A DNA stretch of 64,000 nucleotides. Source: Candidatus Obscuribacteraceae bacterium (GTDB lineage: Bacteria > Cyanobacteriota > Vampirovibrionia > Obscuribacterales > Obscuribacteraceae). Both the position numbers and the translations under genes were made by a program. Where the stretch lies: positions 63,538 through 127,537 of the forward strand of contig JBGASG010000012.1 in NCBI GenBank assembly GCA_044229845.1, given 5' to 3'. The notes under the pieces are model-generated. The model had not been told where the DNA came from. It saw nothing but the letters and a program-made list of their open reading frames with translations, and did no database searches. Positions 8,856 to 60,398 of the stretch are shown here, piece by piece. Position 1 is the stretch's first letter. Each line of letters begins with the position of its first letter.

Positions 8856-11381
8856 ATGTCATCCGAACACGCGGGACAGAATCCAGGACATTCATCCGAA
8901 CCAGTCCAAAGGCTGGACGGTGAGATTTCTGCGCTGGGATTGAGACCGGCTCTGGAGCAGATCTTGGCGTCCGGGATTGAGGTCGGCATCCTGCACGTCG
9001 CCGCCCCCAACCGGTCCGGTGCCCTGTTCATACGCACCGGAGCAGTCAAAGCCGCAATCGCACCCGCTTCCAACTTGCAGGGCATGCCGGCCCTCAAGCA
9101 AGTGCTGGCCGCCGGCGAAGGTAAATTCCGATTTTCCACTGAGCTCCCGCGCGAGCCAATTCGCGAAACGCTCAATATCGACATCGGCTCCCTGCTCGCA
9201 TGGCGCAATGCCAACGTCGCCGACCAGATTCCATCTCTGGCTGAAGCACTGAGCGTCCTGTCCGCCAATGCTTACAGCACCTGGCCGACCGGACAGGAAC
9301 AGCGACCGACCGTCGCCGGCCCTCCGCCTGAACAGCAAGCCGCTGCTCCGTCCGCCCCGCCTCAGCAAGCCCCGTCCAGCGCCGACTTATTTGGGCTGCA
9401 AGAAGCGCTGGCCGCCTACGAAGAACAGAAAAAACAAGAGCGGCAGCAGACAGGCGAAGACCAGAGCGACAGCGCCAGACAGTACACCCTGGAGCAGATG
9501 CAGTTTCAACAGGGTGCGATTCCCACTCCCGCGCCAGCCAGCAAGAGCGGTGAAATCACGCAGCGCTACGACATCAGCGATTTGAAGGCGATCGCCACAC
9601 CTGAGACGGCCGCCCCAGGCAGTGCCGCGCTGGGCGCCGCCGCCGGCAACATGCGCGCCACAGGCGAGATGAACACCACGGGCGAACGTCCACGCGACCG
9701 CATCCAGGGTGACCCACGCCGCATCAGCATGCCCTATCAACGGGTGGGAGGACACGACCGCCCCAGCGGGGCGCACCGCATGCCGGGTGCGCCCGGAGCG
9801 CCCGGTGCGCCGGATCCCACCGCCATGCGCAGCACTGCTGAACTGACACTGCCCACCGGCGAGACTCTGAAAGCCTCTAAAGTGCGCCAGTTGCGGCACA
9901 CACTGATCAGTGTCGGCATCGCCGGCGTGCTGCTTTTGACGGCGGTGATTGCCACCAACAAGATGCTGTCGGAAACCAATTCGGCGCAGAACTATGCCCG
10001 CGGGACGAAACTGCTCAAGGACGGATACAAAGACCTGGCGAAAAAGAGTTTCGACAAAGTGTTGGCGTCCGATCCGAAACACATCAAGGCGCTTCTGGCG
10101 CGCGGTACAGCCAATATTCAACTCAACGACCTCCCGGCAGCCCAACGCGACTTCGATGCGGTACTGGAGATCGACAAGAAAAACCTTGATGCGCTCAACG
10201 GCAAGGCTCTGTGCTATCTCAAAATGCGTGACTTCAACCGGGCTGTGTCCGCCACTGAAGATCTGCTGATGATCGCGCCCAGAAACATTGAGGCACTGTC
10301 CACCTCAGCTCAAGCTCTGCTGGAACTGCGCAGATTTAAGCTGGCACAAGATGCTGCGGACAGAATCATCGCCGCCAAGCCTGACACCGGCATGGCAGCT
10401 GCTTATTCATTGCGCGGAGACTCATTTTTCGGTCGCCAGAAATTTGTCGATGCCCGCAAAGACTACAGCGAGGCGCTTACGCTCGAACCGGGCAATCGGG
10501 CTAATTATGCCAAGCGTGCCCGCACCGCCTTGCAGGTGGACGACTTTCAGGGCGCGGTCGCAGACACTACCCAAGCCATCTTCGGGGATCAGAGCAACCC
10601 CGACCTGTACATGCTGCGCGGTCAAGCCTACGAAAAGCTGAACCAACCAGACAAAGCAGTCCAGGACTATGACAAGGCAGTCGGACTGAAACCAGGCCGC
10701 GACACCTACGCAGCGCGCGCGCATGCGCACCTGTCCATGAAAAACTATAACCGCGCCGCCGCTGACCTGGCTGAAGTGCTTAAAGACCCCAAGGCGCCAA
10801 AGATCTATCACGATGAATTGGCGATGGTGCAACAGAAAATCAAGACGATGCCGGTGGCGAAAATCGATATGGATGCTTTAATTGGCAAGCCCGAAAAAGC
10901 TGTCGTCATGAAGTACGAACAAATGGTGCCGCACGGTCAGGCCTTGCTGGAATCTGGACGAGCCGCCGATGCCGTCAAAATACTGACAATGGCTGTCCGC
11001 GCCAAACCTCAAGACGTCTGGGCCAGGCGCTACCTGGCTCGCGCCATGGCGATGGCCGGCATGCCTCAACAAGCTATCGATCAGTTCAAGCAAGTGCAGT
11101 TCACTGACCGATTGGGTCCAAAAGATCGCACCGCCTATGCACACGCGCTCGTCGACCTGAAACAGCCCAACGAGGCTATTTCGCTGCTCAACGGTGTGGT
11201 CTCTGAAGACCCGGATTACGCCGACGCGCGCATATTACTCATCGAGTGCCTGCTAAAGAGGAATGACCGCGCCAACGCGGTAGAACTTTGCCGCGTTGGC
11301 TTGAGCCGCGCCAGAACCGCCAAGGACCAAGAAAACTTCCAGAAGCTCTATCAAGTTGCGGTTGGTTGGCAGGGCAAATAG
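8856..11381 (+). CDS. DUF4388/PATAN-like - linker - TM - TPR protein, paralog A
   Basis: N-domain LDGEISALGLR..GILHV..GALFIRTGAVKAA..EGKFRF; DLFGLQEAL motif; TM ISVGIAGVLLLTAVIA; many TPRs. Start set to ATG 8856 by alignment with paralogs (ORF track starts 8733). Confidence 0.85.
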   Translation: MSSEHAGQNPGHSSEPVQRLDGEISALGLRPALEQILASGIEVGILHVAAPNRSGALFIRTGAVKAAIAPASNLQGMPALKQVLAAGEGKFRFSTELPREPIRETLNIDIGSLLAWRNANVADQIPSLAEALSVLSANAYSTWPTGQEQRPTVAGPPPEQQAAAPSAPPQQAPSSADLFGLQEALAAYEEQKKQERQQTGEDQSDSARQYTLEQMQFQQGAIPTPAPASKSGEITQRYDISDLKAIATPETAAPGSAALGAAAGNMRATGEMNTTGERPRDRIQGDPRRISMPYQRVGGHDRPSGAHRMPGAPGAPGAPDPTAMRSTAELTLPTGETLKASKVRQLRHTLISVGIAGVLLLTAVIATNKMLSETNSAQNYARGTKLLKDGYKDLAKKSFDKVLASDPKHIKALLARGTANIQLNDLPAAQRDFDAVLEIDKKNLDALNGKALCYLKMRDFNRAVSATEDLLMIAPRNIEALSTSAQALLELRRFKLAQDAADRIIAAKPDTGMAAAYSLRGDSFFGRQKFVDARKDYSEALTLEPGNRANYAKRARTALQVDDFQGAVADTTQAIFGDQSNPDLYMLRGQAYEKLNQPDKAVQDYDKAVGLKPGRDTYAARAHAHLSMKNYNRAAADLAEVLKDPKAPKIYHDELAMVQQKIKTMPVAKIDMDALIGKPEKAVVMKYEQMVPHGQALLESGRAADAVKILTMAVRAKPQDVWARRYLARAMAMAGMPQQAIDQFKQVQFTDRLGPKDRTAYAHALVDLKQPNEAISLLNGVVSEDPDYADARILLIECLLKRNDRANAVELCRVGLSRARTAKDQENFQKLYQVAVGWQGK

Positions 11382-11519: not shown

Positions 11520-13598
11520 GTGAAGGCTCAAAAACACGTACGGGCACCCCGTGGTAATACCCTCGCGATGGTCGCCGGCGTGACGATTGTTTTGCTCATG
11601 GTCGTCGGACTGATTGTTCTCTATCTCTCGATGGTCCGTTCAGGCAGCGAACACAGGAGCGCCATCGACTCAGCCGCGCTGGCGGCAGCCAAAGACATCT
11701 CCCGCATCGCGATTAACACGCCTGAGTTTGGTTGGGTTGCATTGACCACCGAACCACCAATCGGACGCGACACGAATGCGCCGGACCAGTGGTTTCAGGA
11801 AGTTCATAGCCTCAACGAGCTAATGGCTACCGTCCGCCTCGAGATGATCATTGCTAACGAGCTGGGCGACAACTTCATGCGCGATCTGGCTATCAGCGAT
11901 TACAACGACGTAATGCAAGTCAAAGACGATTTGACGACGGAAATCAACCAGGCGCTGCCCAGTGGCGGTTCTGCGAAGGATGCCGCCGGCAACACGTTGA
12001 CTCCCTATCAAAGCGCCCAGCGCGTCTATCTGATGAACCAGGCGAAACAGTCCACTTATGTACCAGGCTCAATGACACTCACACTCGGATGCGTGCAGGG
12101 CGGACTGGAGACTGGCACGCCCGCACCCAATCCGATTGCCAAAGCAGCCGCAGGACCCTCTCAAACATCCAACCAGCGCTACATGTCCGAGACCAACATT
12201 CCTTTCGGCGGCAAAGACTTCATCTTCGGCTCGGTTGGTCGCCATGTCGGACTGGTCGAAAAGGACAAATTTGTCACCGCCATTGGTGGCTTGTCGTACC
12301 AGATGCCGGCCGTCGTAAAAGTGAGCGCGCGGCAACAATTTCAAGACCAGGGAAAAACCTGGCAGGTCAATTACGATGGCTGTGCCTGCGCGGGCAGCAC
12401 CGAGCCGCCAAGACCTGCGCCCGGAGCATTGACGTTAAGCTTTCCTGATGGACCGGTCCCGGAGATCAGCAGAGCCGGCGATGTTTGGAATTGCGCGGGC
12501 GTGCAAGGCACAACAGCGAAGGTCTATCAATCTGATAACGGGGACTTCATCATTGACCGACCAGCCGCTACGCTGGCCGCATGGGGTGGAAAGCCGATTC
12601 CTTTCACAAGTCCCGCCAACCCCAGCGCGTCGGAGACCGCTCGGCTCGCCCTGTATGACTGGTTGCGCTGCGGAGGCAGCAAAGTAGACATCGACTCGGT
12701 TGTGCAACTGCAGACCCGAGCGTTGAATGCACCCTCAACGCCCCAGATTATGTGGAAGTCGGTAGACCCGGCAAACGCGATGTCCTTGATCAATTTTGGA
12801 ATGGTGCCGACCGGCGTAATGCACATCTACACTTTTGATGCCAATGGCGTCATTCAATACCGCAGCGTCGACATCAAGCCCTACCCGTACACCGTGATCG
12901 GCGAAAAGCAACTATATGCGGAAACGGTTGAATCGAATCCGATCGGCAGCGCGGTGCCGCTCTGGACCCTTACCGGCATCAAGTACAAAGACATTCTGGG
13001 AAACATTCTCACAGATGGACAGATTCAAGGCACCGGCAATTACGACATGTTCGTCCGCGACTTCTCTCGCCAGCTAGGCAACATCAAAGGCGGCCAACAC
13101 GGCGGCGAACGCATGGATGGCAACCCACTCGTGTCATACGCCGGCGCATACCCGATCGAGCCGCTTCGCGGCGGTAGAACGTCTCTTACCAACGACATCG
13201 CCATGGCGCCGGTACCGGATGCAGAATTTTGCACATGGTCGGGCGAGAGCAGCTCTGGTCCTTCCACCTCGTCCAGCACATCCAGCTCGTCGGTGAGCAC
13301 CAGCATGACCAGCACCTCCGGCAGCAGTTCCACCACCAATAGTGGCACCACAAATACCGGTGGCGCCGGGCAGGGCGCACCAATTCCGGTGAGCCGCCAG
13401 GATGACTTCGCCTCCACCAGCACTCCGCCTCCGCCGTATATCACCTATACGCGTGGTCCCGGGGGTGGTGCCCCACGTCCCTGTTATCGAACCAACGGAG
13501 TGTCAGCCGACATTCGCTTCCGCCGCCAGGTTAAAGTGGGCCTTTTGCAATTCATGATCGGCGGTTACGAGTTCGGCTATGTGGCTGACATGCGCTGA
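11520..13598 (+). CDS. Large prepilin-like/TadG-like protein, paralog 1 (Ser/Thr-rich insert)
   Basis: RG|NTLAM + hydrophobic helix, then EHRSAIDSAALAAA (Tad/TadG-like N-domain). Shares CACAG, SFPDG, YDWLRCGGS, GERMDGNP, RQDDFAS and DIRFRRQ with four other ORFs here. Confidence 0.75.
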   Translation: MKAQKHVRAPRGNTLAMVAGVTIVLLMVVGLIVLYLSMVRSGSEHRSAIDSAALAAAKDISRIAINTPEFGWVALTTEPPIGRDTNAPDQWFQEVHSLNELMATVRLEMIIANELGDNFMRDLAISDYNDVMQVKDDLTTEINQALPSGGSAKDAAGNTLTPYQSAQRVYLMNQAKQSTYVPGSMTLTLGCVQGGLETGTPAPNPIAKAAAGPSQTSNQRYMSETNIPFGGKDFIFGSVGRHVGLVEKDKFVTAIGGLSYQMPAVVKVSARQQFQDQGKTWQVNYDGCACAGSTEPPRPAPGALTLSFPDGPVPEISRAGDVWNCAGVQGTTAKVYQSDNGDFIIDRPAATLAAWGGKPIPFTSPANPSASETARLALYDWLRCGGSKVDIDSVVQLQTRALNAPSTPQIMWKSVDPANAMSLINFGMVPTGVMHIYTFDANGVIQYRSVDIKPYPYTVIGEKQLYAETVESNPIGSAVPLWTLTGIKYKDILGNILTDGQIQGTGNYDMFVRDFSRQLGNIKGGQHGGERMDGNPLVSYAGAYPIEPLRGGRTSLTNDIAMAPVPDAEFCTWSGESSSGPSTSSSTSSSSVSTSMTSTSGSSSTTNSGTTNTGGAGQGAPIPVSRQDDFASTSTPPPPYITYTRGPGGGAPRPCYRTNGVSADIRFRRQVKVGLLQFMIGGYEFGYVADMR

Positions 13599-14767
13599 TG
13601 GTCAGTAGCGGTATCACTTCCGGAGCCGGAGCAGCTTTGCCAGAGAAATCAGACGGGGGCTCTCTCAGCGCGGCCGGCAACGCCTCCAACGTTCCGTATC
13701 GCTGGATTATCAATCCGACTTTCGACCTCCTTTTCGTTGCCGGCGGCGCCTTTTTCCTGCTCGTAGCAATCAACTACTTGTGCCTGGGCATGAAAGTGGC
13801 TGCTTACGATCCCCGTTATCCGCTGGGAGCCACATCACTGCTATTCGTGATCGCGTTTCTTGCCGTGCATGCGCTCGGCGATTCGCACATCTTCGCCACA
13901 TTCATGCGCATCTGGAGCTGCCCGGAGGACAAGAAACGCTTCGCCTTCTATCGCGTGTGGCTCACGGCTGTCTTGATACCACTATTCATAATTGGCATGA
14001 ACTCGGCCGTATTCACCGGTGCACTGCTTTCCATATTTTTGCTGACAGCTTTCTGGCACTGGACTACGCAGGCTTTCGGCATTTCTCTCATCTACTGCCA
14101 GAAACACGGCTACTCGATGACTGCGTTCGAACGCGACGCGTTTCGCTGGTTCATGCGCGGGCTGGCTGGTTATTTCATCATTCGCATGCTGGTCTTTCCC
14201 GATCGCTACGTGCCATCCAATTTCGCTGCCGTACCTGTAACCAAATTTCCGGCACTCCCCGAGTCTGTGCACGCAATAGCCAGCTGGGCGCTGATTCTCG
14301 TCGTCTCCGCATTTGTCGCAATCACGCTCCGCAAACTGGTCACCGAAAGAAAGTTTCCCCCCTTACCTGTGCTATCCATGATCGCGGTTATCTGCTGTTT
14401 CGGGTTTGCCGAAGATCGAGAGAGCATGCTGATCTGGTTTTACGGACCGGCGTTTTTTCATGGCAGTCAATACCTGGCAGTAACACTCTCCTACCACTTG
14501 AAACAACAAGGACTGCCTGAAGGCATGCCTACTTCGCAGATTTCCAGGCTGATGTTTGGCCTGCCGGGATTGAAATACATGGCGATCGCCATCGCCGGCG
14601 GTATCGTCCTCTACGTCGGCATTCCGGCCATCAGCGCACTCTTCGGCTACGACCGTATCATGGTTTTGGGACTGGTGTTTTCCCTTCTCAGTCTGCACCA
14701 CATCATCACCGATGCCGCCATCTGGCGGTTGCGCGACCCTCAATGCCGGCGCCTTTTGATCTCCTGA
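13598..14767 (+). CDS. Polytopic membrane protein with His-containing motifs
   Basis: About 9-10 hydrophobic helices; motifs SHIFAT, FWHWTTQAFG, FHGSQYL, LHHIITDAAIWRLRD. ATG overlaps the TGA of paralog 1. Confidence 0.8.
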   Translation: MVSSGITSGAGAALPEKSDGGSLSAAGNASNVPYRWIINPTFDLLFVAGGAFFLLVAINYLCLGMKVAAYDPRYPLGATSLLFVIAFLAVHALGDSHIFATFMRIWSCPEDKKRFAFYRVWLTAVLIPLFIIGMNSAVFTGALLSIFLLTAFWHWTTQAFGISLIYCQKHGYSMTAFERDAFRWFMRGLAGYFIIRMLVFPDRYVPSNFAAVPVTKFPALPESVHAIASWALILVVSAFVAITLRKLVTERKFPPLPVLSMIAVICCFGFAEDRESMLIWFYGPAFFHGSQYLAVTLSYHLKQQGLPEGMPTSQISRLMFGLPGLKYMAIAIAGGIVLYVGIPAISALFGYDRIMVLGLVFSLLSLHHIITDAAIWRLRDPQCRRLLIS

Positions 14768-14880: not shown

Positions 14881-17187
14881 ATGTCACCCGATCAAGCTGA
14901 TCATTTACCCGCACCAACACCGACGCAACGCTTGACCGGCGACATAACCTCTTTCGGGCTACGCCCGATTCTGCAAGAGATACTGGCCTCGAACCAGCTT
15001 TCTGGCGTGCTTTTCATCCACAGCCTGGATTACCAGACCGGCACCATTCTGTTAGTGGACGGCATAATCAGAGCTGCAGTGATTCCGGCAGCCAACGTGC
15101 GGCGCATTCCGGCGTTGCGCCAGATGCTCTCAGCAATCAGCGGCACCTATGAGTATGTACCGGACAGCACCAGAGTCGAGTTGAAGAAACCAACCAACGT
15201 CGACCTCGCTGAGCTGCTTGCCTGGCGTTCGACTGAAACCCAGGAAACCACCCTCGGCGATTCGCTGGAAGCACTAAATACGATACCATTGAGCACGGGG
15301 GAGAAGTGGGAAAATTATATCGATAGAACCACCGACGAGCCGGGCTCCGCCAACCCGCCTGCCAGAGGCGCGGATGCACCGACCGTGAAGTCATACCTTC
15401 CCCTGGCGCCGGACGGCGACCTCTTCGGACTGCAAGAAGCGTTGCGTCAGCACGAAGCAAAACTGGCGGCGCAGGTCTCCGACGAGGCCCTGAGCGCCGG
15501 GTTGGAACCCGAGTACAACGAAGATCCAGACGTGCCCACGCTGATCAACCTGTCCGCAATCAAAGCCATCCCGACGCCCAGCGTCACGGCTCCCGACCGC
15601 ATCACTGCCAGTTATGAAATGCCGGACGGCACGGTAGTCGGCGGTTCCCCGACCGGCTCCACCGCCAGGCCCAAGCACACCTACCCGAAGTCGAATGCCA
15701 TTAGATACGGTGCCTTGAGTATCGGCATCGGCTTCCTTCTCCTGGCGGCAGTGGTGATCTCGACCGCCAAAGTTCTCGAAGAAAGCGACAGGCAGAAGAC
15801 CTACGCCCGAGGCGTCCAGCTGCTTAGAGAGAGATACTACGGGCTGGCCAAACAGCGCTTCGACAGCCTCCTCGAACACGATGCTCGCTTTGTACCGGCA
15901 CTCTTGCAGCGTGCACAAGCTAACTTACTGCTCAACGATCCTCAGGCGGCCATTCGCGATTACGACGCCGTCATACAAGCGGATGCCGGCAACGCCGAAG
16001 CTACCGACGGTCGAGCCGCCTGCTATCTAAAACTGCGCGACTATCCGAAAGCCGTAGCGCTGGCCGATGAAGCTCTGAAGGTAAAGCCCAACGACTACGC
16101 AGCGCTATTGATAAAAGCCACGGCCTATCGCGACCTCGGGGAGAACGCCCGCGCCATCTCAGTGGCCGGCGAGATCATCGCCAAGAAACCTGCTGCGCAG
16201 CTTGCTGAGGCCTACGCGGTACGGGGAGACGCCCTGTACAGGAGCGGCAAGTACAGCGAGGCGCGCGATGACTTCAACGCCGCCCTGGAAACAGATCCCA
16301 AGGCAAACGACATCTACGCAAAGCGCGCCATGGCCCTGTTGCAACTGAAGCTCTACAAAGAAAGTCTCGCCGACAGCACAGACGCCATTTTCGCCGACAA
16401 CACCAATTCGGATCTGTACATGTTGCGCGGCCAGGCTTATGAAAGGCTTGGCGAGCTGGAAAAGGCTGTGGAAGACTACGAGCAAGCAGTGTCGTTCGAG
16501 CCGACGTTCGAAACCTATGCTGCACGCGCCCGTGTCGAGATGGCACTTAAACAATACAACCGCGCGGTTGCAGATTTGTCCGAGGTGGTCAAAGACACAG
16601 CCGCGCCGCCTAGTTATAAGGCTTTGCTTGCCGAAGCCAAAGAGAAGGTCAAGTCGATGCCGGTAAACGCTGTGGACATCGCGGCGCTCACCGAGAAGGA
16701 TCGACCGGCCATCGTACTCAAGTATGACCAGATGGTCCGACAGGGTTTCGCGCTCACCAGACAGGGTCGAGGCATGGATGCTGCGCAGTTGCTGTCTGTA
16801 GCCGTGCAGGCTCAACCAAATGATGTGCAAGCGCGACGCTACCTGGCCCAGGCATTTGCGGTCGCGGGTCTGGGGGATCGCTCTATCGAGCAATTCAAAA
16901 TCGTAGAAAGAACCAACACCCTCACGGACGAGGATCGGTTCTACTATGCGCGTGCACTGCACAACTTGAAGCAAGATGCGCAGGTGATATCCGTCACCAC
17001 CGATCTGCTGGGCAGAGACCCTCACCACGGCGAGGCGCGCTGTTTGCTGATCGAGTCGCTCTTGCGCAGCAACGACCGCGCCCGCGCTATAGAAGAATGC
17101 CGACTGGGCGCCTCCTACGCACGGACACCCCAGGACATTGCCACCTTCCAGCGCCTGTACCAGGTTTCGCAGACTTATCACCGGTGA
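14881..17187 (+). CDS. DUF4388/PATAN-like - TM - TPR protein, paralog B
   Basis: LTGDITSFGLR.., DLFGLQEAL, TM LSIGIGFLLLAAVVI; TPR array colinear with paralog A (AIFADNTNSDLYMLRGQAYE). Confidence 0.85.
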   Translation: MSPDQADHLPAPTPTQRLTGDITSFGLRPILQEILASNQLSGVLFIHSLDYQTGTILLVDGIIRAAVIPAANVRRIPALRQMLSAISGTYEYVPDSTRVELKKPTNVDLAELLAWRSTETQETTLGDSLEALNTIPLSTGEKWENYIDRTTDEPGSANPPARGADAPTVKSYLPLAPDGDLFGLQEALRQHEAKLAAQVSDEALSAGLEPEYNEDPDVPTLINLSAIKAIPTPSVTAPDRITASYEMPDGTVVGGSPTGSTARPKHTYPKSNAIRYGALSIGIGFLLLAAVVISTAKVLEESDRQKTYARGVQLLRERYYGLAKQRFDSLLEHDARFVPALLQRAQANLLLNDPQAAIRDYDAVIQADAGNAEATDGRAACYLKLRDYPKAVALADEALKVKPNDYAALLIKATAYRDLGENARAISVAGEIIAKKPAAQLAEAYAVRGDALYRSGKYSEARDDFNAALETDPKANDIYAKRAMALLQLKLYKESLADSTDAIFADNTNSDLYMLRGQAYERLGELEKAVEDYEQAVSFEPTFETYAARARVEMALKQYNRAVADLSEVVKDTAAPPSYKALLAEAKEKVKSMPVNAVDIAALTEKDRPAIVLKYDQMVRQGFALTRQGRGMDAAQLLSVAVQAQPNDVQARRYLAQAFAVAGLGDRSIEQFKIVERTNTLTDEDRFYYARALHNLKQDAQVISVTTDLLGRDPHHGEARCLLIESLLRSNDRARAIEECRLGASYARTPQDIATFQRLYQVSQTYHR

Positions 17188-17336
17188 AGTCTGCGCCCTT
17201 GCAAACATTGCCGATAACAATTCTTTTCGGCAATATTGTCGAAAAGAAAATCGCTAGCTTGTCGCCGAAAAGTCACAGCACAATTGATTCCAGTCCCTTT
17301 TAGATGTAAGGTACACGGGCTTTCTGGAGATAGGAC

Positions 17337-17882: not shown

Positions 17883-17917
17883 AAAAGGCGATGAGAAGGG
17901 CTTCCCCTTCTCATCGC
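17882..17917 (-). terminator. Rho-independent terminator between convergent cargo genes
   Basis: 13-bp perfect stem gcgatgagaaggg-cttc-cccttctcatcgc with an A5 run on its left (U-tract for the minus strand). Confidence 0.8.
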
Positions 17918-17930
17918 AAGTAGTTCAGCG

Positions 17931-20839: not shown

Positions 20840-21073
20840 TGGTTTGGACTCCCGTCACTTTATGCCCGTGACGGGAGAATCATAACACTGCCTAATACGG
20901 TTCTTTTCAGCAAACACGTGTCGGTATTACCACCATATCTGGTGCGAAGGAACTGCCACCCGCTCCATTTGACAAGCCCGAAAACTCCTGCCGATCCCCC
21001 GGCTGAGTATTTGATAATATCGAGGGGGAAACCAAAGCGGATATTGGCGTTCTGACGCCGGGTGCGTGCTGCT

Positions 21074-23452
21074 ATGTCCTTAGAACCGCCGCCGAACAAT
21101 CTTGAAAACGCGTCTGCGCAGGTGCACAAGCTGGTGGGCGACATTGATGCCCTGGGTTTGCGCGAGGCTTTCGAGAGGGTCCTGCAGGCTGAAATTCCGG
21201 TCGGCATTCTACAGGTTGCTTGCCAGAACAAGGCGGGCGCCATACTCGTCCGCGGCGGCTCGATAAAGGCGGCTATCGCCCCTTCCTCGCAACTTCTGGG
21301 CGAGCCGGCCCTCAGGCAGATACTGAGCGCCGACGAAGGCAAGTATCGTTTCACAACGGACTTGCCCCGGGAGCCCGTCCGCGAGGTCCTGGACATAGAC
21401 GTGGCTGCCCTGCTCAATTGGCGACACCCCGCCCAGCCAGATGTGGTGCCGTCGCTGGTACGAGCACTTGAGACCCTCATGTCCAGCGAATCTTATACGG
21501 TGTCGACCGACCAGCATATTCCTGTTTATGTGCCTGAGCCGGACACGGACGAGCTGATAGCTCTTTCCGATGAAGAAATGTCGGCGGCGCGAACTGCACC
21601 CGAGGATTGCTTCGGGTTGCAGGATGTACTGGCACGCTTCGAAGCGCAGAAGAAGCAGGAAGCAGAGGACCTCAGACAACTTACTAACGAGCACCTGAAA
21701 AAAATCGAGGCGCCGCCAGATCCTTCGCCCGACGATCGGCCGCTGCCCATGAACCGCTCAACCGATCAACAACGTCGGGGATCGGCAGAGCATCCAACTG
21801 ACTCTCCTTACCGCATCACCGGCGGACATCGCGTCACCGGCGGACACACGACCGGTACCTACGCGCAGCTAGCGGCCGACCAAACAGCGCAGCTCCCCGC
21901 GATCTCCAGCGAGATTACCTTGCCGACCGGCGAGACCCTCAAAGAATCACGGACGAAACAGTTCAGGCAAACCTCCCTTTTCGTCGGCATCGCAACCGTG
22001 CTGATTACAGCGGCAGTAATCGCAACCAACAAAGTACTGACTGAAACCAACGCGGTGCAAGGGATGCAGGGCGGCAATCAGTTGCTCAAAGATGGATACA
22101 AAGATCTGGCCAAAAAGAGTTTTGCCCGGGTCATCGAGAAAGATCCAAATAACGTGCCGGCATTGCTGGGGCGCGCTGCTGCGTGTTTGCAAATGCACGA
22201 TCTGCCGGCGGCGAGCGCGGACTACGCCAAGGTCTTAACCCTCGATCCCGGCAATATCGAAGCCATGAACGGGCAAGCTGGAGTTTTCGTCCAACTGAAA
22301 GACTACGCAGATGCAGTGGCAATCACCGAAAGCGCCATCAAGGCAAAACCCGACAATGCGCGGGCTTTGCTGATCCAGTCGCAGGCCTATTTGGCGATGG
22401 GAAAAAACAAACAAGCCGCTGATGCCGCCACTCGCATCATCGAGAAAAAAGCGCCCGACGTGCTGGCCGCCGCTTATGCCGCGCGCGGTGACGCGTTTCT
22501 CGCCCTGAAAAAGTTCGGCGAAGCTTACTCCGACTTCAGTCAGGCGCTGCTGGTCGATCCAGGCAATCGCGCCAACTTTGGAAAACGCGCTCAGGCTGAA
22601 CTTGCACGCTACGAATACAACGCAGCGATTGCCGACGTCAACCAGGCGATTTTCGCCGATCAGTCTAATCCCACCTGGTTCATGCTGCGGGCGCAGGCAC
22701 TGGCGAAAACAGATCAGCTGGACCGGGCAGTAGAAGACCTCGACAAAGCGGTAGAGTTGAAGCCCGGAATCGACACATACGGCCAGCGTGCGCGCGTGCA
22801 CATGGCGATGAAAAACTACAGTCGCGCCTACGCTGATCTGTGCGAGATCTGCAAAGATCCGCGCGCACCAGTCTCGTACCAGGCACAACGCGACCAGGTG
22901 GAAGCCAAACTGAAGAAGGGACCTGTCACGAAGATTGACGTGGAGGGTTTGATCTCAACGTCGGAGCCGGCGCGCGTTCTGAAATATGATGAAATGGTGC
23001 GCGAAGGTTATGCGCGTCTCAACGCCGGAGACGCGCAGGGAGCGCTGCAATTGCTTTCGATGGTGGTAAAAACAAATCCGTCCGACCTGGAGGCACGTCG
23101 TTATCTAGCCCGTGCATACCAGAAAACAGGTCACGGGCAAGAAGCAGTCGAGCAGTTTAAGTACGTGCAGGACGTGAAACCGCTAGACGGGCACGATACC
23201 TACTGTTACGCGCAGGCCATGTATGACCTCAGGGAGTACAACCAGGCAATCCCACTTCTCACCGCGCTCGTGGATCGCGAACCGAACTATGCCGAAGCCA
23301 GGGTGTTGCTTGTGAACTGCTTGTTGCTGGTGAACGACCAATCAACCGCCCTCGAGGTGTGTCGCGCCGGTGCATCGCGGGCGCGCACCGCACAGGAAAT
23401 CGCCCGCTTTCAACAGCTCTATCGAGTCGCGCAATCGGGAGCGGGACAATGA
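21074..23452 (+). CDS. DUF4388/PATAN-like - TM - TPR protein, paralog C
   Basis: LVGDIDALGLR..EGKYRF, DCFGLQDVL, TM LFVGIATVLITAAVIA. Closest to paralog A (shared TLPTGETLK and LLKDGYKDLAKKSF). Confidence 0.85.
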   Translation: MSLEPPPNNLENASAQVHKLVGDIDALGLREAFERVLQAEIPVGILQVACQNKAGAILVRGGSIKAAIAPSSQLLGEPALRQILSADEGKYRFTTDLPREPVREVLDIDVAALLNWRHPAQPDVVPSLVRALETLMSSESYTVSTDQHIPVYVPEPDTDELIALSDEEMSAARTAPEDCFGLQDVLARFEAQKKQEAEDLRQLTNEHLKKIEAPPDPSPDDRPLPMNRSTDQQRRGSAEHPTDSPYRITGGHRVTGGHTTGTYAQLAADQTAQLPAISSEITLPTGETLKESRTKQFRQTSLFVGIATVLITAAVIATNKVLTETNAVQGMQGGNQLLKDGYKDLAKKSFARVIEKDPNNVPALLGRAAACLQMHDLPAASADYAKVLTLDPGNIEAMNGQAGVFVQLKDYADAVAITESAIKAKPDNARALLIQSQAYLAMGKNKQAADAATRIIEKKAPDVLAAAYAARGDAFLALKKFGEAYSDFSQALLVDPGNRANFGKRAQAELARYEYNAAIADVNQAIFADQSNPTWFMLRAQALAKTDQLDRAVEDLDKAVELKPGIDTYGQRARVHMAMKNYSRAYADLCEICKDPRAPVSYQAQRDQVEAKLKKGPVTKIDVEGLISTSEPARVLKYDEMVREGYARLNAGDAQGALQLLSMVVKTNPSDLEARRYLARAYQKTGHGQEAVEQFKYVQDVKPLDGHDTYCYAQAMYDLREYNQAIPLLTALVDREPNYAEARVLLVNCLLLVNDQSTALEVCRAGASRARTAQEIARFQQLYRVAQSGAGQ

Positions 23453-25427: not shown

Positions 25428-25512
25428 CGTTCCGAAATCCGAATGCCAAACACATTCAGTGTTTCACTTACAGCATCTGTTCAATAGTGTATTCGATCTG
25501 CGATTTGTGGTG

Positions 25513-25575: not shown

Positions 25576-25652
25576 ATGCAGTATCCAAGCCACTTGACGG
25601 GGATTGTGCATTGGCATAGGCTGGATGAGTAAACGCAGTTTAATAGAGTTAT

Positions 25653-38401: not shown

Positions 38402-38424
38402 AAGCGCCAGGGTATAAGGGGATC

Positions 38425-51510: not shown

Positions 51511-51513
51511 GGT

Positions 51514-53682: not shown

Positions 53683-55614
53683 TTAAGGCAGCATCTCGCC
53701 CACGTAACCGGTTTTGACACCGCCAAACACAAACGAATAGGCATCGCCGATCTTGACCTGGCGCCGAAAACGAATGTCCCCAGACAGACCGTTCTTTAAA
53801 TACGCGGGTCGGGGAGCGCCACCGCCGGGTCCCTGCGTGTAGACGGTGTAGGGCGGCGCTGGAATTGTCGAGGAAGCGAAATCGTCTTGTTTGGAGATCA
53901 AATTAGGAGCTCCCGGTCCGCCACCGCCGGTAGTTCCAAGCACTTCGCTTTGCGGCTGATTGAAGCAGATCCAGTCTTCTTCTAGAGAACCGAGGGGAGG
54001 CTGGCTGATAAGCGGATTGCCGTCCAGTCGCTCGCCGCCGTGCTTGCCACCACCTTTGGAGCCAAGGCAGCGAGACAGGTCGCGCACGTAGACATCAATC
54101 TTGTCCGTTCCTTCAACCTCGCCATCTGTCTTCAGCGCGCCTTTAAGCAGATAATGCACACTCTTGAACTTCCATGGTTGGGTCGCCTTGACGTTGCTCT
54201 TAACGCCGTCGTCCTTGGCAAACTCACCATAGAGCTGGTTTTCGCCAACAGTGGTGTAGGGATAAGGCTGAATTGTCTTGCTTACATACTTAGTCGTGCC
54301 GTTGGTATTGAACGTCAAAATGTGCATGATGCCCGTCGGCAGAGGTCCTATCAATTGCAGACCGCCGCTTTGAGGATCGATGGCTTTCCATGGAGTCGTG
54401 CTGGGTGATGGCGTATCCAGCGTCAGGCTGCTGAGCGCCAGCACAGAGTCAATGTCGACGTTCGACCCGCCGCAGCGCAACCAGTCATAAAGCGCCAGTC
54501 GGGTTACCTCAGATGCCGGGGGCTGGGTTTTAGAAAACGGAATCGGCGCACCAGGCCATGGCGTCACAAGAGCGGCTCCCTTTGGCACTTCCACAATGAA
54601 GTCGGCATTCTTCACCTGGTAAACGTCCATATCCTTGCTGGCCAGGCTTTTCCAGTTCCACGCGTCGGCGGCATTAACCACCTCCGGAATCGGTCCATCC
54701 GGAAAACTGAGGGTCAGGGCGCCGGGCGCGGGACGCGGCGGCTCGCTGCTTCCCGCACAAGCACAGGCAGCATAAGTGACTGTCCAGGTCTTTCCTTGAT
54801 CCGAAAACTGTTGGCTGGCTTCAGCCAGCACAACGCCGGGCATTTGATACGGGAGACCCGGCACAGCAGCCTTGAACTTGGTCTTATCGCACAGCCCCAC
54901 CTTTCTGCCAACGGAGCCGAACACAAAGTCTTTTCCACCGTAAGGTATGTTCACTTCCGAGAGGTAGCGGTTGTTGGACTCTTTTCCGGCGCACGCTCCC
55001 TTCGACAACGGCTTGGGCGCCGGAGTGCCAGTCTCAATGCCGCCTTCGACACCACCCAATGTGAGCCTGAGCGAACCGGTGACATACGTCGAACCCTTTG
55101 CCTGGTTCTTCAAATAAATGCGCTCCGCATCATCGTATGGTCGGAGTATATTGCCGGCTTTGTCTTTTCCTGAGCCTCCGCTTTGAATAGCATTCGTCAG
55201 TTCCGTGACCAGCGCATCCTTCACTAACAACACATCGTTGTAGTCCTGCGTCGCCAGATCAGTCATGAATGGATCCGCCAGCTCGGTGGCAATGATCAAG
55301 TCCAGTCGGGCAGTCGCCATCAACTCATTAAGGCTGGTGACGTCCTGGTAGTAGTCATCGTTTGCCTTGGTGTCTGAACCGGTCGGCGCCTCCGTCGACA
55401 GAGCGACGAAGCCAAACTGCTGCGTGTTCACCACAATGCGAGAAATGTCGTTGGCAGCCGCAAGAGCCGCTGCATCTATGGCGGTTCTGTGTTCGCTGCT
55501 CGATCGATTCATCGACATGTAGAGCAGCCCGAAAGCCAACACCACTATCAACACGATGGTTGTGGCAGCGATCAGCGCCAAGGTATTACCTTTTCCGGTT
55601 CTAGATGTCACCAC
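53683..55614 (-). CDS. Large prepilin-like/TadG-like protein, paralog 5 (shortest insert)
   Basis: KG|NTLAL + TM, EHRTAIDAAALAAA, family motifs; ggagg RBS; directly downstream of TPR paralog D. Confidence 0.75.
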   Translation of the reverse strand: MVTSRTGKGNTLALIAATTIVLIVVLAFGLLYMSMNRSSSEHRTAIDAAALAAANDISRIVVNTQQFGFVALSTEAPTGSDTKANDDYYQDVTSLNELMATARLDLIIATELADPFMTDLATQDYNDVLLVKDALVTELTNAIQSGGSGKDKAGNILRPYDDAERIYLKNQAKGSTYVTGSLRLTLGGVEGGIETGTPAPKPLSKGACAGKESNNRYLSEVNIPYGGKDFVFGSVGRKVGLCDKTKFKAAVPGLPYQMPGVVLAEASQQFSDQGKTWTVTYAACACAGSSEPPRPAPGALTLSFPDGPIPEVVNAADAWNWKSLASKDMDVYQVKNADFIVEVPKGAALVTPWPGAPIPFSKTQPPASEVTRLALYDWLRCGGSNVDIDSVLALSSLTLDTPSPSTTPWKAIDPQSGGLQLIGPLPTGIMHILTFNTNGTTKYVSKTIQPYPYTTVGENQLYGEFAKDDGVKSNVKATQPWKFKSVHYLLKGALKTDGEVEGTDKIDVYVRDLSRCLGSKGGGKHGGERLDGNPLISQPPLGSLEEDWICFNQPQSEVLGTTGGGGPGAPNLISKQDDFASSTIPAPPYTVYTQGPGGGAPRPAYLKNGLSGDIRFRRQVKIGDAYSFVFGGVKTGYVGEMLP

Positions 55615-55713: not shown

Positions 55714-58077
55714 TCAATGCTGGGCTGCCGGAGTTGAGTCTGACTGCCAGGTTTCGGACAACTTGAGCAGATTCTGGAACTTTTCCAGGTCCTTCGCTTG
55801 CTTGGCACGCAAGACACCGGCCTTGGACATCTCGATGGCGCTTGCCTTGTCGTTCATGCTCAGTTGTGTCTTGATGAGCAGCACTCTCGCGGCATGATAA
55901 TCCGGATTCTGGTCGAGAATTGTTCTGAGCAGATCCACGGCTTGCTTGCGCTGGTCCAGGTGGGTGAGCGCTTCCGCATACGCATATCTGTCTTGCGCCT
56001 CCAGCGGCTGAACGGTCTCAACCTGTTTCAGCTGCTTGATCGCTTCCGCCGCCCGGCCCGATGCTGCATAAGCTCTAGCCAGTAGGCGCCGGCCGGTGAT
56101 GTCTTTCTGATTAGCGGCCGCTGCTTGCTCCAACACCTGCACGGCCTTCGCGCTTTCCTCAGCATCCAACAGCCTCTGCCCATACTGCAACATCTGCTCG
56201 TACGTCAGCTTCTGCACAGGCTCATCCTTACCGATCAATCCCTCCATGTCCATTTGCACTGGCATCGACTTGATCTTTTCCTTGACCATTGCCAGTTGTT
56301 CTTTGCTCTCCGGTGGTGCTTTCGGGTCTTTCACTACCTCTTCCAGGTCAGCTGCCGCCCGCGAGTATTTTTTCAAGGCGAGGTTGGCTTTACCACGCGC
56401 AAAATAAGTCTCTGTGGACGGCTTGAAACCAACCGCCTTGTCGAAGTCCTCGGCTGCCTTGTCCATTTGCCCAAGCTTTTCGTATGAGCGACCGCGCAAC
56501 ATGAACAAATCCGCATTGGTGGCGTCAGCGAAGATGGCTGCCTTAGCGTCTTCTGCCGCCGCTTTGTAATCGCCCAGATCAAATTCGACTCTAGCCAGGT
56601 CGGCATAACTCTTGCCGTCCTTTTCGTCAATTTTGACTGCCTGCTTCAGATCGTTTTTTGCTTCCGCAAGCTTTCCGGCCTTAAACAGCGCCTCACCGCG
56701 CGTAGCATAGACAGCACCCAGCCCATCCACCGGTTTTAAATCTATGATACTGGTGGCGGTGACAATCGCCCGATCGTATTCACCAAGACCCAGTTGCGCT
56801 TGCGCCTGCGCCACCATAGATGGTGCGTGCCTGGGCTCGACAGCCAGAGCGGCCTGCGCCGCATCCATGGCATGCGCATAGTCTTTCATGCCAAGGAACG
56901 TCGCAGCCCGTCCATACAATGCGTCCAGATTCTTGGGCTGGAACACCAATACCTGGTTGTAATCAACTAGAGCTGCCGTGTAATCTTTGGCGCGCGTACT
57001 AGCCAAAGCCCGCCCCAACAAAGCATCTACGTTACCTGGCGAAAGCTGCAATACTTTGTCGAAGTGTTTCTTGGCGATATCGCTATAGCCATCGTGCACG
57101 GCTTGCATACCGGCTTTGTACTGGCTGTCCGAATTGTTTTCCTGCAAGTACTTAGCCGTGGTCGACACCGCCACTGCCATAATCCCCAGCCCCACTAACA
57201 CGCTAACTGAAATCCCGGCGGTCTTAACCACCTTCTTCCTGGTTTCAGCGGCACGCTCGGCGGCTTCTTCATCTACGCTGTGCGAACGGTCCGGTGCCTC
57301 GACTGTCGGAATCGGAATTTGTTTGATGGCGGAGATGTGCAGCGCCGTCTTAGCATCCGGGTCATACACGGCATCAAGCCATGCTCCAGGCACCACGTTC
57401 ATCTTCTCGAGGTCTTCTCGGCGCTTCTCTTCGTAGTTGGCGAGCGCCGCCTGCAAACCGAAGGGATCGGCTCCCGGAAGGTCCGGTGCCGCCGGCTGCG
57501 CCATTGCCCCGTTCGCCGCGGGCGCCGGATTTTGTCCGGGTGGGGCCGGACGCGTTGCCTCCGGGCTCGGTCCGGCGGCTCTAGTCAGGTCGCCAAAGCC
57601 CGGACTGTCTGGTCTGCCAAACATCTGCCTGCTGTCAGCTCCCGCACTGAAACCTGGACCCATGGCGGCGTTATTGGCGATCGCTGTGAGAGCATCAACG
57701 AGCGAAGGCTGTTGATTAATGCCGCCGGTATGCCAGCTGAGGAGCGCGCCCAGATCTACGTTGAGATTTTCAGGAATCGGCACAGGCGGCAGATCTGTTG
57801 AGAAACGATACTTTCCTGCACCGGCAGACAGAACATGAGCCAGCGCCGCCATGTCCGTCAGCCTGTGCTCCGGAGAGCTGGCAGCCTTAATCACGCCGCC
57901 CCGAATGAAGAGAGCACCCGAATGCGGTCCCGCAACCTGAAGGATGCCGGCCGGTGCCGTTAACTGGACGATTTTCAAAAGCCCGCCGCGCAATCCTGAC
58001 GGTCCGATCTCACCGACCAGCAACGTGCCTGTGCCGAGGGATTTCTGCTGGCCTTCTCCACCGTGACCTGACGTCAT
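55714..58077 (-). CDS. DUF4388/PATAN-like - TM - TPR protein, paralog D
   Basis: LVGEIGPSGLR..AGKYRF, DPFGLQAAL, TM ISVSVLVGLGIMAVAV, colinear TPR array. Confidence 0.85.
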   Translation of the reverse strand: MTSGHGGEGQQKSLGTGTLLVGEIGPSGLRGGLLKIVQLTAPAGILQVAGPHSGALFIRGGVIKAASSPEHRLTDMAALAHVLSAGAGKYRFSTDLPPVPIPENLNVDLGALLSWHTGGINQQPSLVDALTAIANNAAMGPGFSAGADSRQMFGRPDSPGFGDLTRAAGPSPEATRPAPPGQNPAPAANGAMAQPAAPDLPGADPFGLQAALANYEEKRREDLEKMNVVPGAWLDAVYDPDAKTALHISAIKQIPIPTVEAPDRSHSVDEEAAERAAETRKKVVKTAGISVSVLVGLGIMAVAVSTTAKYLQENNSDSQYKAGMQAVHDGYSDIAKKHFDKVLQLSPGNVDALLGRALASTRAKDYTAALVDYNQVLVFQPKNLDALYGRAATFLGMKDYAHAMDAAQAALAVEPRHAPSMVAQAQAQLGLGEYDRAIVTATSIIDLKPVDGLGAVYATRGEALFKAGKLAEAKNDLKQAVKIDEKDGKSYADLARVEFDLGDYKAAAEDAKAAIFADATNADLFMLRGRSYEKLGQMDKAAEDFDKAVGFKPSTETYFARGKANLALKKYSRAAADLEEVVKDPKAPPESKEQLAMVKEKIKSMPVQMDMEGLIGKDEPVQKLTYEQMLQYGQRLLDAEESAKAVQVLEQAAAANQKDITGRRLLARAYAASGRAAEAIKQLKQVETVQPLEAQDRYAYAEALTHLDQRKQAVDLLRTILDQNPDYHAARVLLIKTQLSMNDKASAIEMSKAGVLRAKQAKDLEKFQNLLKLSETWQSDSTPAAQH

Positions 58078-58145: not shown

Positions 58146-60398
58146 TCAACCAGGACTGGGTTCCGGGCCGGGCTCCGCAGGATGGGCAGACGGCGTTCCA
58201 GAGATGCCTCCCTCCGTTCCGGATCCCTCACTTGCGGCAGCATCAGCGGATTCCATCGCCGCGGTGCCGGCGGCAGTCAATGGCACTTTACGCCAGTAGT
58301 GGAAGGCCAGTCCGTAAAGAGCGAGCGCCACCAGGTTTAGTGCCGAGATACCGAGCACCATCGAGAAATATTCCAGAGCACCACCAACCAGCGTACCGAG
58401 CAGGTTCATGCCCAGCGCGTTGTGCGGTACGTCGACTTTGCTGAAGGTAATTGCGAAGATCCAGGAAGCGAAAAATATGGGCAACGCCAGCACCAGTCCG
58501 CCCAGGGTCAGACGTTCGAACATGCCCATGGCGTTGAACATCGAAAGCGGCATGAAGTAACTGCCGATCAGTGCAACGAAAAGCAGGATATACAGTGGTT
58601 TGGGATCCTGCACTTTAATGCGCATCTGCAGGATGTTGGCAATCAGAATCATGATCAAGATGGCAGCAATCACAGCCGAGTTAACCAGCCAGGTGGTACC
58701 GGCCAGCAGTCCCATTTGAGAAACGCTCTTCACTTCAACCAGCATGAACGCCGCGCCCAGGTAGAACATAGTCCGTCCGAGCGGCTCCACCGTGTACGAT
58801 CCGAAGCACTTGCGCACCAGGCGCCAGCCGATACACAGCGTGAATATCAGTCCTGCGGCGTAAGTAATGGTCATGCCGCGCTCACGTAAAAACAGATACG
58901 GCCAATCGTCGGTGGTGACGTTGATGCGGTCCCAATCGGCCAGTTCGGTCTTGTTGAGGGCTTTGTTCTCTTCTTTGTCGAAGAGTTTCATGCCGGTGCC
59001 GGCAATCACTTGTTTGATGTGTTCTTTATCGACCCCGGGTCCTACCAAAAACTGCAATGCGGTTTTGTTTTCCGACCAGATACCGATCGGTTCTTCGCCC
59101 ATGGCTTCGGTGATGGTCTTGAAGAGACGCGTCGTTTGCCAGGAAGTCGTAGCGTAGAACGTCACCGCCATGATGCCGTCGGGCTTCATCAGTTTCTTAG
59201 CTTCTCTAAAACTTTCGAGCGTGTAGATGTAGTTGTCCAGGCGAATCGACGACATCGACGAGAAAGCGCTGTGACTGTCGAGGTACGCAAAGTCCACCAG
59301 GTCATACTGCCGCTTCGTTTGCTTGAGGAACGCGCGTGCATCGTCAATATGAATGTGCACGGCCGGGTTGCTGTAAGGCTTTTCGGGGTGAATCTCGGTG
59401 CCCAGTTTGTGAATCACCGGGTCGATCTCCACAGCATCGATATCGGTGGCACCATGCCGCAGCCCCGCCGCCAGGTCGTTTCCTGCCCCGGCAGCCAGCA
59501 CCAGCACTGAGCGCGGTTTCTCGCCGATCAGCTTATAGAGCATGTCGTAGTAATCGAGCATTTGCTTGCGCTGGGCCGGACTGGCCTTCGCAAACGTTTC
59601 GGCGCGGTGATCGTAGGCGCCTTCGATGCCGTCGTGGTTTACATCAATGGTATTGCCGTAAAGAAACGCCGGATGATCGCCATCAGCCGGAATGACGTTT
59701 TTCGTCAGGCTGACGCGGTAATAGGGCGACCAGATGACGCCGGGTTGGCTGGTGAAAAATGCCAGTGCCGCGCACGCCGCGAGGATCCCCAGTTGCCACG
59801 GCTTGCGCCAGAACCAGGCACACATGACTGCAGCGCTGGTAACCCAGATCTCAGGCTTGAGCGAGAGAAACGACATGAGCGTGAACAGCGCGATACCGAT
59901 GAAACTGGCACCGACGTTGATACTGTATGCAACCAGCGGAGGAAACTCGTCGAACAGCTTGCCGAGCCGCTGCCCGATGCTCATAAAGGTGCCGACAATT
60001 ATGTAGAACACGGTGCACAAAACGATCAGCCCTGGTATGACCAGCATAGCTTTGTCCAGATAAGTTGCATTGCCTTCGAATCCGCGCTCGTTCGTGCCGA
60101 TCAAATAGTGTTCGACCGGGTTGATGCAAGTGACGTGCACCAGGTGCAGGGGATCGGCAAATGAAATCAGAAAGCAAAGAATGAAGAGCCCGACAGGAAA
60201 CATCCAGCCCAGGTCTTTCTTGGAATTGGAAAGTGCCAGACCCAATCCCAGACCGAACAAAGTTGCCATCAGAGGAATGTTTTTGAAATACGCAAAAATG
60301 CGAATCTCAGATGACAACCAACGTATTACGAGAAGTTCAACGAACAGCGAAATGACGCTGATCAGAAACAACTCCCAGATTTTGCGAGACTTGAACAT
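58146..60398 (-). CDS. Membrane-embedded spermidine-synthase-like SAM-dependent enzyme
   Basis: N- and C-terminal TM bundles around a class I SAM domain: WSPYY, VLVLAAGAGND, AVEID, DDAR, LDSH, YIYTLES, TDDWPYL. Confidence 0.85.
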   Translation of the reverse strand: MFKSRKIWELFLISVISLFVELLVIRWLSSEIRIFAYFKNIPLMATLFGLGLGLALSNSKKDLGWMFPVGLFILCFLISFADPLHLVHVTCINPVEHYLIGTNERGFEGNATYLDKAMLVIPGLIVLCTVFYIIVGTFMSIGQRLGKLFDEFPPLVAYSINVGASFIGIALFTLMSFLSLKPEIWVTSAAVMCAWFWRKPWQLGILAACAALAFFTSQPGVIWSPYYRVSLTKNVIPADGDHPAFLYGNTIDVNHDGIEGAYDHRAETFAKASPAQRKQMLDYYDMLYKLIGEKPRSVLVLAAGAGNDLAAGLRHGATDIDAVEIDPVIHKLGTEIHPEKPYSNPAVHIHIDDARAFLKQTKRQYDLVDFAYLDSHSAFSSMSSIRLDNYIYTLESFREAKKLMKPDGIMAVTFYATTSWQTTRLFKTITEAMGEEPIGIWSENKTALQFLVGPGVDKEHIKQVIAGTGMKLFDKEENKALNKTELADWDRINVTTDDWPYLFLRERGMTITYAAGLIFTLCIGWRLVRKCFGSYTVEPLGRTMFYLGAAFMLVEVKSVSQMGLLAGTTWLVNSAVIAAILIMILIANILQMRIKVQDPKPLYILLFVALIGSYFMPLSMFNAMGMFERLTLGGLVLALPIFFASWIFAITFSKVDVPHNALGMNLLGTLVGGALEYFSMVLGISALNLVALALYGLAFHYWRKVPLTAAGTAAMESADAAASEGSGTEGGISGTPSAHPAEPGPEPSPG

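Follow-up and report, generated by a model that had tools for sequence, protein, structure and literature searches.

The 64,000-nucleotide stretch of DNA analysed here (the window; positions 63538-127537 of contig JBGASG010000012.1) belongs to a 5.16 Mb Candidatus Obscuribacterales genome. It carries five paralogous genes for large pilins that resemble TadG of the Tad pilus, four genes for proteins combining a PATAN/DUF4388 domain, a transmembrane (TM) helix and tetratricopeptide repeats (TPR), and two gene pairs encoding an HTTM protein and a DUF5819-like protein (Table 1). All genes and orientations listed in an earlier note on this DNA, which had been made without database searches, were reproduced by a map of the open reading frames (ORFs) and by Pfam scans. 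The note had described repeated modules across about 52 kb; the same families do recur over this distance, but around 22 kb of the region consist of genes unrelated to the pilin set (eutABC, peptidases, Ada and a recombinase island). Mis-assembly could be ruled out: a congeneric genome is collinear at 96-99% across most of positions 3130-59681, and contigs from two other DNA runs bridge positions 33952-40999 and 21000-25760. The locus is probably best explained as a repertoire of interchangeable Tad tip pilins together with an HTTM/DUF5819 pair, which acts on the pilins or on their partners.

Table 1. Genes of the pilin cluster, with positions in the window
Feature	Position	Strand	Evidence or remark
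TPR-A: PATAN/DUF4388-like domain, one TM helix, TPR array	8856..11381	+	ORF start possible at 8733
TadG-like pilin 1, 692 amino acids	11520..13598	+	PF13400 above cut-off; AlphaFold2 predicted local distance difference test (pLDDT) 80, predicted template modelling score (pTM) 0.79
His-motif membrane protein, no known family	13598..14767	+	conserved H97, H154, H288, H367, H368
TPR-B	14881..17187	+	Pfam scan, paralogue alignment
TPR-C	21062..23452	+	Pfam scan, paralogue alignment
Small membrane-anchored TPR protein 1	23449..24009	+	convergent with HTTM protein 1
HTTM protein 1, GGCX-like membrane domain	23956..24906	-	PF05090; family profile matches human GGCX
DUF5819-like protein 1	24903..25427	-	overlaps HTTM start by 4 bases
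TadG-like pilin 2	25653..27782	+	PF13400, paralogue alignment
TadE-like minor pilin, 151 amino acids	27788..28243	-	pilin leader; cluster mate matches PF07811
TadG-like pilin 3	32119..34152	+	PF13400, paralogue alignment; 1.2 kb deleted in congeneric genome
TadG-like pilin 4	34288..36369	+	PF13400, paralogue alignment
Secreted protein, no known family	36436..37707	+	recurrent pilin neighbour
Secreted HExGH protein, DUF922-like lead	37700..38401	-	most frequent pilin neighbour
Small membrane-anchored TPR protein 2	38425..39057	+	converges with HTTM protein 2
HTTM protein 2	39021..39974	-	family profile matches human GGCX
DUF5819-like protein 2	39971..40567	-	DUF5819-family alignment, weak Pfam match
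TadG-like pilin 5	53683..55614	-	PF13400, paralogue alignment
TPR-D	55714..58077	-	Pfam scan, paralogue alignment
Membrane spermidine-synthase-like S-adenosylmethionine (SAM) protein	58146..60398	-	PF01564; membership in cluster doubtful

The TadG-like pilin family

The five pilin-like ORFs encode proteins of 643-709 amino acids, which are 46-58% identical end to end and start with a basic leader, a glycine followed by NTLA and a hydrophobic helix. At genome level, the Pfam Tad family PF13400 matches all five (E 2e-5 to 6e-3), three of them over the cut-off. Of 98 aligned family members, 83 have the cleavage glycine (13 have a gap at this position), followed by N/S-M/T-L; position +5 is occupied by L, M or F and in none of the 98 by Glu. 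The most distal pilins (GspK/PilX) typically lack Glu5. In the AlphaFold2 model of pilin 1, a helix (residues 14-62) leads into a beta-rich body with antiparallel strands; residues 541-619 are variable and disordered, and the last strand spans 685-688. The family has one conserved Cys, and the C-terminal GY is kept in 88-89 of the 98 rows. Together with the final strand of the model, the GY recalls the C-terminal beta-strand of Caulobacter CpaL, which licenses assembly and was proposed to complete the pilin sheet (PMC12918778; statements on this and all other papers cited refer to the accessible parts of their texts). CpaL/TadG is likewise an orphan minor-pilin-like gene of about 600 amino acids with an N-terminal pilin module (PMC12607857, PMC12918778); however, CpaL is a single-copy protein with a von Willebrand factor A (VWA)/MIDAS domain, whereas none of the five window pilins has a Pfam match to VWA at E 0.01 and their distal fold remained unmatched in the searches. 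Five of six scanned TadG proteins of the other families do match VWA.

Searches with the whole pilin model gave no Foldseek match at E 0.001, and the best hit of a VIA fold search had a Z-score of 5.2 (root mean square deviation 3.8, 116 aligned residues, RecN), which became 4.0 on a second look; PDB sequence searches with the pilin, HExGH, DUF5819 and His-motif queries returned nothing significant. This lack of a structural match to a solved pilin, together with the finding that known families match the first 60 residues alone, would suit membrane-anchored surface or pseudopilus proteins outside any extended pilus. Such a role is most improbable given the conserved cleavage glycine, the Tad Pfam match and the presence of Tad motors and a Flp-like gene in the genome.

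Of 27 genomes sampled from the order, 26 have the pilin family (one of them marginally), with up to 16 matches per genome; it was found in none of 13 other members of the class or 200 further members of the phylum that were searched; 641 representatives match it at E 0.001. The window pilins can be regarded as a local expansion because FastTree groups them with 11 metagenomic relatives in a single clade (support 1.0), from which the 57 locus rows of other genera are all excluded. Recent gene conversion among them was considered and rejected, the longest shared DNA block being 25 bases. In the congeneric genome, positions 32860-34059 are missing, a 1.2 kb deletion that shifts the frame of pilin 3; the junction of this deletion recurs, as a loose end, in a contig of run X17. 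Two further genes, those for pilin 5 and TPR-D, are broken in the congeneric genome. These lesions would fit a redundant repertoire that is turning over. Taken together, the five large proteins would be tip pilins of the TadG/KilN type, which belong to an Obscuribacterales-specific family and were multiplied locally. In some loci of the order in which an HTTM gene converges on a pilin (L024, L111-L113, L141, L148 and L149, from four genera), the pilin is split into genes of about 550 and 160 amino acids.

The Tad machine and a comparison with the Kil Tips

None of 45 scanned window proteins is a Tad motor, platform protein, secretin or prepilin peptidase, as the earlier note had observed. Its suggestion that a Tad pilus is encoded elsewhere was borne out: two TadA-type ATPases are encoded in the genome, both with CpaE- and CpaB-like genes ahead of them and TadB/TadC-type genes behind. 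The genome further encodes a pair of A24 peptidases, a pair of secretins and a PilT-type ATPase, and it has a small Flp-like gene. Local models detect 25 Tad pilin-like genes in the genome, and all 32 genomes sampled from the order have CpaB. The five large window proteins are very likely tip pilins, which are served in trans by this machine. Prepilin peptidase would cut the leader between G and N, and each pilin would then assemble with TadE/F-type minor pilins into the tip of a Tad pilus, whose motors are encoded on other contigs. Judging from its anatomy and from Kil and CpaL, the pilin may expose its variable distal domain there.

A similar principle has been described in Myxococcus xanthus, where a set of four Kil Tips, proposed to be interchangeable, is used on one Tad pilus (PMC12075869). 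Since interchangeable Tad tips have already been published, the system, which the earlier note had put forward as a candidate undescribed one, is not wholly undescribed; what was not found in the literature searched is a tie between the HTTM/DUF5819 pair and Tad pilins. Like the Kil Tips (KilL/M/N), the window proteins are paralogous large TadG-type pilins with variable distal domains, which are encoded away from the motor. The Kil Tips, however, are encoded in L-M-N gene triplets, are disulfide-rich and are tied to predation with a type III secretion system (PMC12075869), whereas L-M-N triplets are absent here and most pilins lack adjacent TadE/F genes, with only pilin 2 adjoining one TadE-like gene. 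The HTTM/DUF5819, HExGH and TPR neighbours are a feature of the window, which the accessible part of the Kil paper does not mention. By this comparison, the window is best read as resembling the Kil Tips in its way of working, without being a member of them. Such a reading would extend interchangeable Tad tips beyond the myxobacteria to an uncultured sister group of the cyanobacteria.

The HTTM/DUF5819 pair beside Tad pilin genes

Each HTTM gene of the window follows a DUF5819-like gene and converges on a small TPR gene. The two HTTM genes match PF05090 (E ~1e-15); the Pfam match of the DUF5819-like family is weak (11 of 24 members at E up to 1, best 0.0023). HTTM genes are present in 98 of the 107 genomes of the order (325 matches). 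From the best 150 of these matches, 32 HTTM-anchored loci were taken, of which 12 were top-scoring and 20 represented one genus each, with long contigs being favoured; two of the top-scoring loci were known beforehand to adjoin an HExGH gene. The Tad-gene models used for the linkage test were built from this genome and from loci that were not anchored on HTTM. TadE/F/G-like genes lie nearby in 24 of the 32 loci (9/12 top-scoring, 15/20 one-per-genus) and in 20 of these 24 within 3 kb, against a background of 4.4% of random 20 kb windows in this one genome. In most cases, the neighbours form a complete TadE-TadG-TadF triplet whose TadG belongs to another family, frequently one with VWA. In loci L145 and L162, the HTTM pair is co-directional with and directly behind TadE/F genes, and in genus g22 a fused gene of the VKGC type, which combines HTTM, a lumenal domain and a QNH motif, is located between pilin and HExGH genes (L034, L106, L117). 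In a tree of 39 HTTM rows, the pilin-context labels require 11 changes, and linked copies fall into several clades and stand beside three pilin families. On balance, this gene context argues that the pair acts on Tad tip pilins. HTTM and DUF5819 would form a split membrane enzyme related to GGCX and MloH, which has been kept beside Tad tip-pilin genes throughout the order and which, to judge from the linkage, most likely acts on the pilins or their partners at the periplasmic face during maturation.

The likeness to the vitamin K-dependent carboxylase is pronounced. The HTTM family profile matches human GGCX (E 4.5e-16), and K188, W194, H259 and F271 (numbered, as all HTTM residues here, from the GGCX profile alignment) are invariant in 24 of 24 rows and align with GGCX K218, W223, H287 and F299; E235 is also invariant and aligns with D263. 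In GGCX, K218 is the base, W223 its support and F299 the CO2 contact, and N159/H160 are ligands of the glutamate (PMC12647623). Adjacent DUF5819 and HTTM genes have been modelled as a split GGCX/MloH-like complex whose substrate is not named in the accessible text (10.64898/2026.08.19.745780), and the window pairs have the same gene arrangement and keep the catalytic Lys, Trp and Phe of GGCX (PMC12647623). They differ in that N159/H160 are not kept, and the context of Tad pilins is added by the present analysis. From the alignment, the quinol chemistry of the pair looks intact and the substrate site unlike that of GGCX. Two VitK2_biosynth genes of the menaquinone pathway are present in the genome. 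Menaquinol-dependent carboxylation would be the leading guess for the chemistry of the pair, to be taken tentatively, and the more specific prediction that the pair carboxylates Tad tip pilins is rather doubtful.

Several observations weigh against an order-wide enzyme acting on, and carboxylating, the tip pilins. Sampling of the HTTM loci followed match rank and was not random, and a single genome supplied the background. A single clade accounts for twelve of the linked HTTM rows, which lie in a conserved block together with unrelated genes (for a hydrolase, a thioredoxin and SpoU); because these rows share an inherited syntenic block, the HTTM loci are not independent and the linkage count is inflated. 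The usual TadG beside HTTM belongs to a different family from the window pilins. Conversely, among 38 pilin-anchored loci of other genera (the stronger family matches and two more, with the loci of the congeneric genome and one duplicate left out), just two contain an HTTM gene, and a TadE-type neighbour occurs in just seven by the TadE model or five by a second model; because TadE-type genes are this rare beside the pilins, the tip partners would mostly be supplied in trans. Around the third HTTM pair of the genome, a 20 kb locus contains no pilin. As to the chemistry, the glutamate-binding residues N159/H160 of GGCX align with S126/G127 of the HTTM family (21/24 and 23/24 rows), and VKOR was not found in this 88% complete genome.

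These points bear on a rather unlikely alternative, according to which the tip pilins are real but HTTM and DUF5819 hitch-hike from an old syntenic block and act on a lipid, a small molecule or another periplasmic protein. The conserved HTTM block indeed holds unrelated genes, eight of the 32 loci lack a Tad pilin, and no Tad pilin was found in 12 HTTM loci outside the order (local models on all ORFs, Pfam on 71 selected neighbours); moreover, MloH acts on a polyketide-peptide intermediate (10.64898/2026.08.19.745780). However, hitch-hiking does not sit well with a pair that, in several HTTM clades and in differing gene orders, stands beside pilins of three families, that lies co-directionally right behind TadE/F in two loci and that was duplicated together with the pilins in the window.

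If the pair does act on pilins, it could also do so as a maturation factor in processing, folding or redox chemistry instead of as a carboxylase, a tentative possibility modelled on Bacillus SdpA/SdpB, a two-gene pair with an HTTM-related membrane protein, which is needed to mature a neighbouring exported protein (PMC13343845). In contrast to SdpA/SdpB, the window HTTM proteins score 52.7 and 42.5 bits against a cut-off of 178.4 with the SdpB model TIGR04033, no SdpC-like gene was recognised nearby, and the neighbours are pilins. The invariant vitamin K-deprotonating Lys and CO2-stacking Phe, as well as the fused VKGC-type gene with its QNH and lumenal domain that fills the same place in one genus, also speak against this variant.

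A tie between Tad tip pilins and a split carboxylase-like enzyme was not found in the literature searched, outside which subscription papers mostly lie. Relatives of the vitamin K-dependent carboxylase occur widely in bacteria, and no substrate is named for the split DUF5819/HTTM form in the accessible source (10.64898/2026.08.19.745780); in one order, the 75% linkage of this form to genes for Tad tip pilins would provide a concrete, testable substrate candidate and, if true, a ribosomally made protein as substrate of a bacterial vitamin K-dependent carboxylase.

A small TPR gene similar to those of the window was present in five of the 32 HTTM-anchored loci. At L138:4920-6920, upstream of HTTM, a PMT_2 glycosyltransferase-like membrane protein carries a fused DUF5819-like domain. 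In four genomes (contigs G021:C39, G054:C6, G091:C19 and G093:C1), cpaB is located 22-28 kb from the best HTTM match, a hint at one ancestral Tad supercluster.

Neighbours of the pilin family: HExGH and secreted proteins

The most common neighbour of the pilin family was overlooked in the earlier note. It encodes a secreted protein with an HExGH motif and occurs in 18 of the 38 pilin-anchored loci, followed by Ser/Thr kinases (14/38), which may merely mirror the abundance of kinases in these genomes, and the secreted protein encoded downstream of pilin 4 (12/38). In the reverse direction, 40 HExGH-anchored loci were chosen among the best 150 of 164 matches, and a pilin was present in 31 of them; the nine loci without one include those of the weakest-scoring members. 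Both the HExGH protein and the secreted protein are best read as accessory factors of the pilin family itself. The HExGH family is found in 71 of the 107 genomes of the order; HExxH is kept in 51 of 57 rows with an invariant downstream Asp, and 30 of the 57 members carry a lipobox. PF06037 (DUF922) has no match in the genome; an Atlas neighbour of the HExGH family at 0.93 carries DUF922 on 17% of its members, which serves as a lead only. The structural model of the HExGH protein (pLDDT 87) gave a best Z-score of 7.0 over 54 residues, to unrelated small domains, and Atlas provided no family for the secreted protein. The pilin, HExGH, secreted and His-motif families have no Pfam assignment beyond the pilin leader.

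The predicted complex of pilin 4 with the HExGH protein scored 0.42, compared with 0.01 for the best control, with 41% contact agreement and a partner pLDDT of at least 78. The mark for such scores is reached by 116 of 157 solved and two of 215 mismatched pairs; at scores up to 0.60, it is reached by 18 solved pairs and by both of the passing mismatches. The model thus lends weak support to a binding of the HExGH protein by pilin 4. In a Kil-like contact weapon, the tips would deliver this metalloprotease-like protein to other cells, just as the Kil Tips mediate killing (PMC12075869), and the conserved HExxH and the predicted complex would suit such a function. It is nevertheless very unlikely: with their lipobox, 30 of the 57 members look membrane-tethered, an immunity-like gene was not seen, and predation data for the order were not found.

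TPR, His-motif and SAM proteins

The four TPR proteins (768-841 amino acids, 36-48% identical) consist of an N-terminal domain, a variable linker, one TM helix and a TPR array. The N-terminal domain resembles PATAN/DUF4388, with Pfam scores of 20-24 bits against a cut-off of 25 (E 6.6e-4) and an hhalign probability of 85 (E 6.7e-6, 75 columns). By the positive-inside rule, the PATAN domain would be cytoplasmic and the TPR array periplasmic. The same N-terminal domain is found in cyanobacterial regulators of type IV pili, and PATAN domains bind PilB1/PilC in Synechocystis (10.1101/2021.06.11.447907); unlike these regulators, the proteins of the window have a TM helix and a TPR array and lack a receiver domain, and the motors are of the TadA type. 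Strong TM-TPR matches were restricted to this genus (2/107 genomes), and ten full-length relatives were found.

The earlier note had proposed that each TM-TPR protein is the periplasmic adaptor of the neighbouring pilin. A TPR gene is indeed located directly upstream of pilins 1 and 5, five of the ten full-length relatives are perhaps, as a hint, on the same contigs as relatives of the window pilins, and a distant PATAN-TPR gene directly precedes TadE-TadG-TadF in three loci of genus g22 (L140, L154, L155); the binding of PATAN domains to PilB1/PilC would also suit a link to the pilus. As a general role, however, the adaptor is not supported, with full orthologues in one genus and none in the 38 pilin loci of other genera, and it is unlikely in the window as well. 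Co-divergence left no sign in the pairwise identities, the closest TPR pair (TPR-A/TPR-C, 48%) not matching the closest pilin pair (pilins 1 and 5, 58%; TPR-D being the neighbour of pilin 5), and PilB is not among the four PF00437 matches of the genome. A regulatory role of the TPR proteins is plausible, whereas a cognate pairing with pilins is unsupported; they would represent a genus-level addition, which may signal to the motor. Further large proteins with PATAN-like domains and TPR are encoded in the genome away from Tad genes (C19:138138-146071, C18:30245-33481, C8:530088-534293).

The earlier note had also named HTTM/DUF5819, the His-motif membrane protein and the SAM protein as possible parts of a conserved neighbourhood. 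Conservation beside Tad pilin genes was seen for HTTM/DUF5819, as described above, but not for the SAM family; the His-motif family is linked at longer range, to HTTM. The His-motif family has no Pfam or PDB match, is present in 89 of the 107 genomes of the order and, like the PATAN-TPR and SAM families, is absent from the 38 pilin-anchored loci. Among the matches listed, an HTTM gene stands no more than 30 kb from the best His-motif match in 23 of 70 genomes (eight genera), compared with a rough expectation of 2%; 62 of the 70 genomes had an HTTM match among those listed. This proximity suggests a larger ancestral cluster. A more far-reaching scenario combines these families in an order-wide tailoring cluster, in which a split menaquinol-dependent GGCX homologue would carboxylate acidic residues of the tip pilins and thereby create metal-binding adhesive tips, aided by a His-motif metalloenzyme and a tip-bound HExGH protease; at present, this scenario appears rather improbable. 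The SAM family, found in 95 of the 107 genomes, was rejected as a part of the system, as it occurs in none of the 38 pilin-anchored and none of the 40 HExGH-anchored loci; other spermidine-synthase-like genes adjoin pilins in four loci only.

Other genes and features of the window

Positions 17250-20900 form a variable island inside the cluster, which encodes two secreted proteins without a family and a FimB/FimE-like tyrosine recombinase (20129-20839; 144 bits, below the cut-off of 222). The island has divergent alleles in the congeneric genome, and a direct repeat of 30 bases, with imperfect copies, occurs at 17204 and 20884. That the FimB-like recombinase drives phase variation was considered and rejected, as no convincing invertible element and, in the other loci scanned, no relative of the recombinase turned up. 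Contigs of RNA libraries overlap parts of the TadE-like gene, of pilins 3 and 4 and of the secreted gene, an overlap that is not readable as transcription or as a ranking of genes. Outside the cluster, positions 5553-6422 encode a protein of 289 amino acids without a Pfam match, in which an HExxE-like motif is present in two internal repeats. Between positions 28328 and 31923, eutA and eutC are located on the minus strand and an intact eutB lies divergently on the plus strand, an ordinary arrangement.

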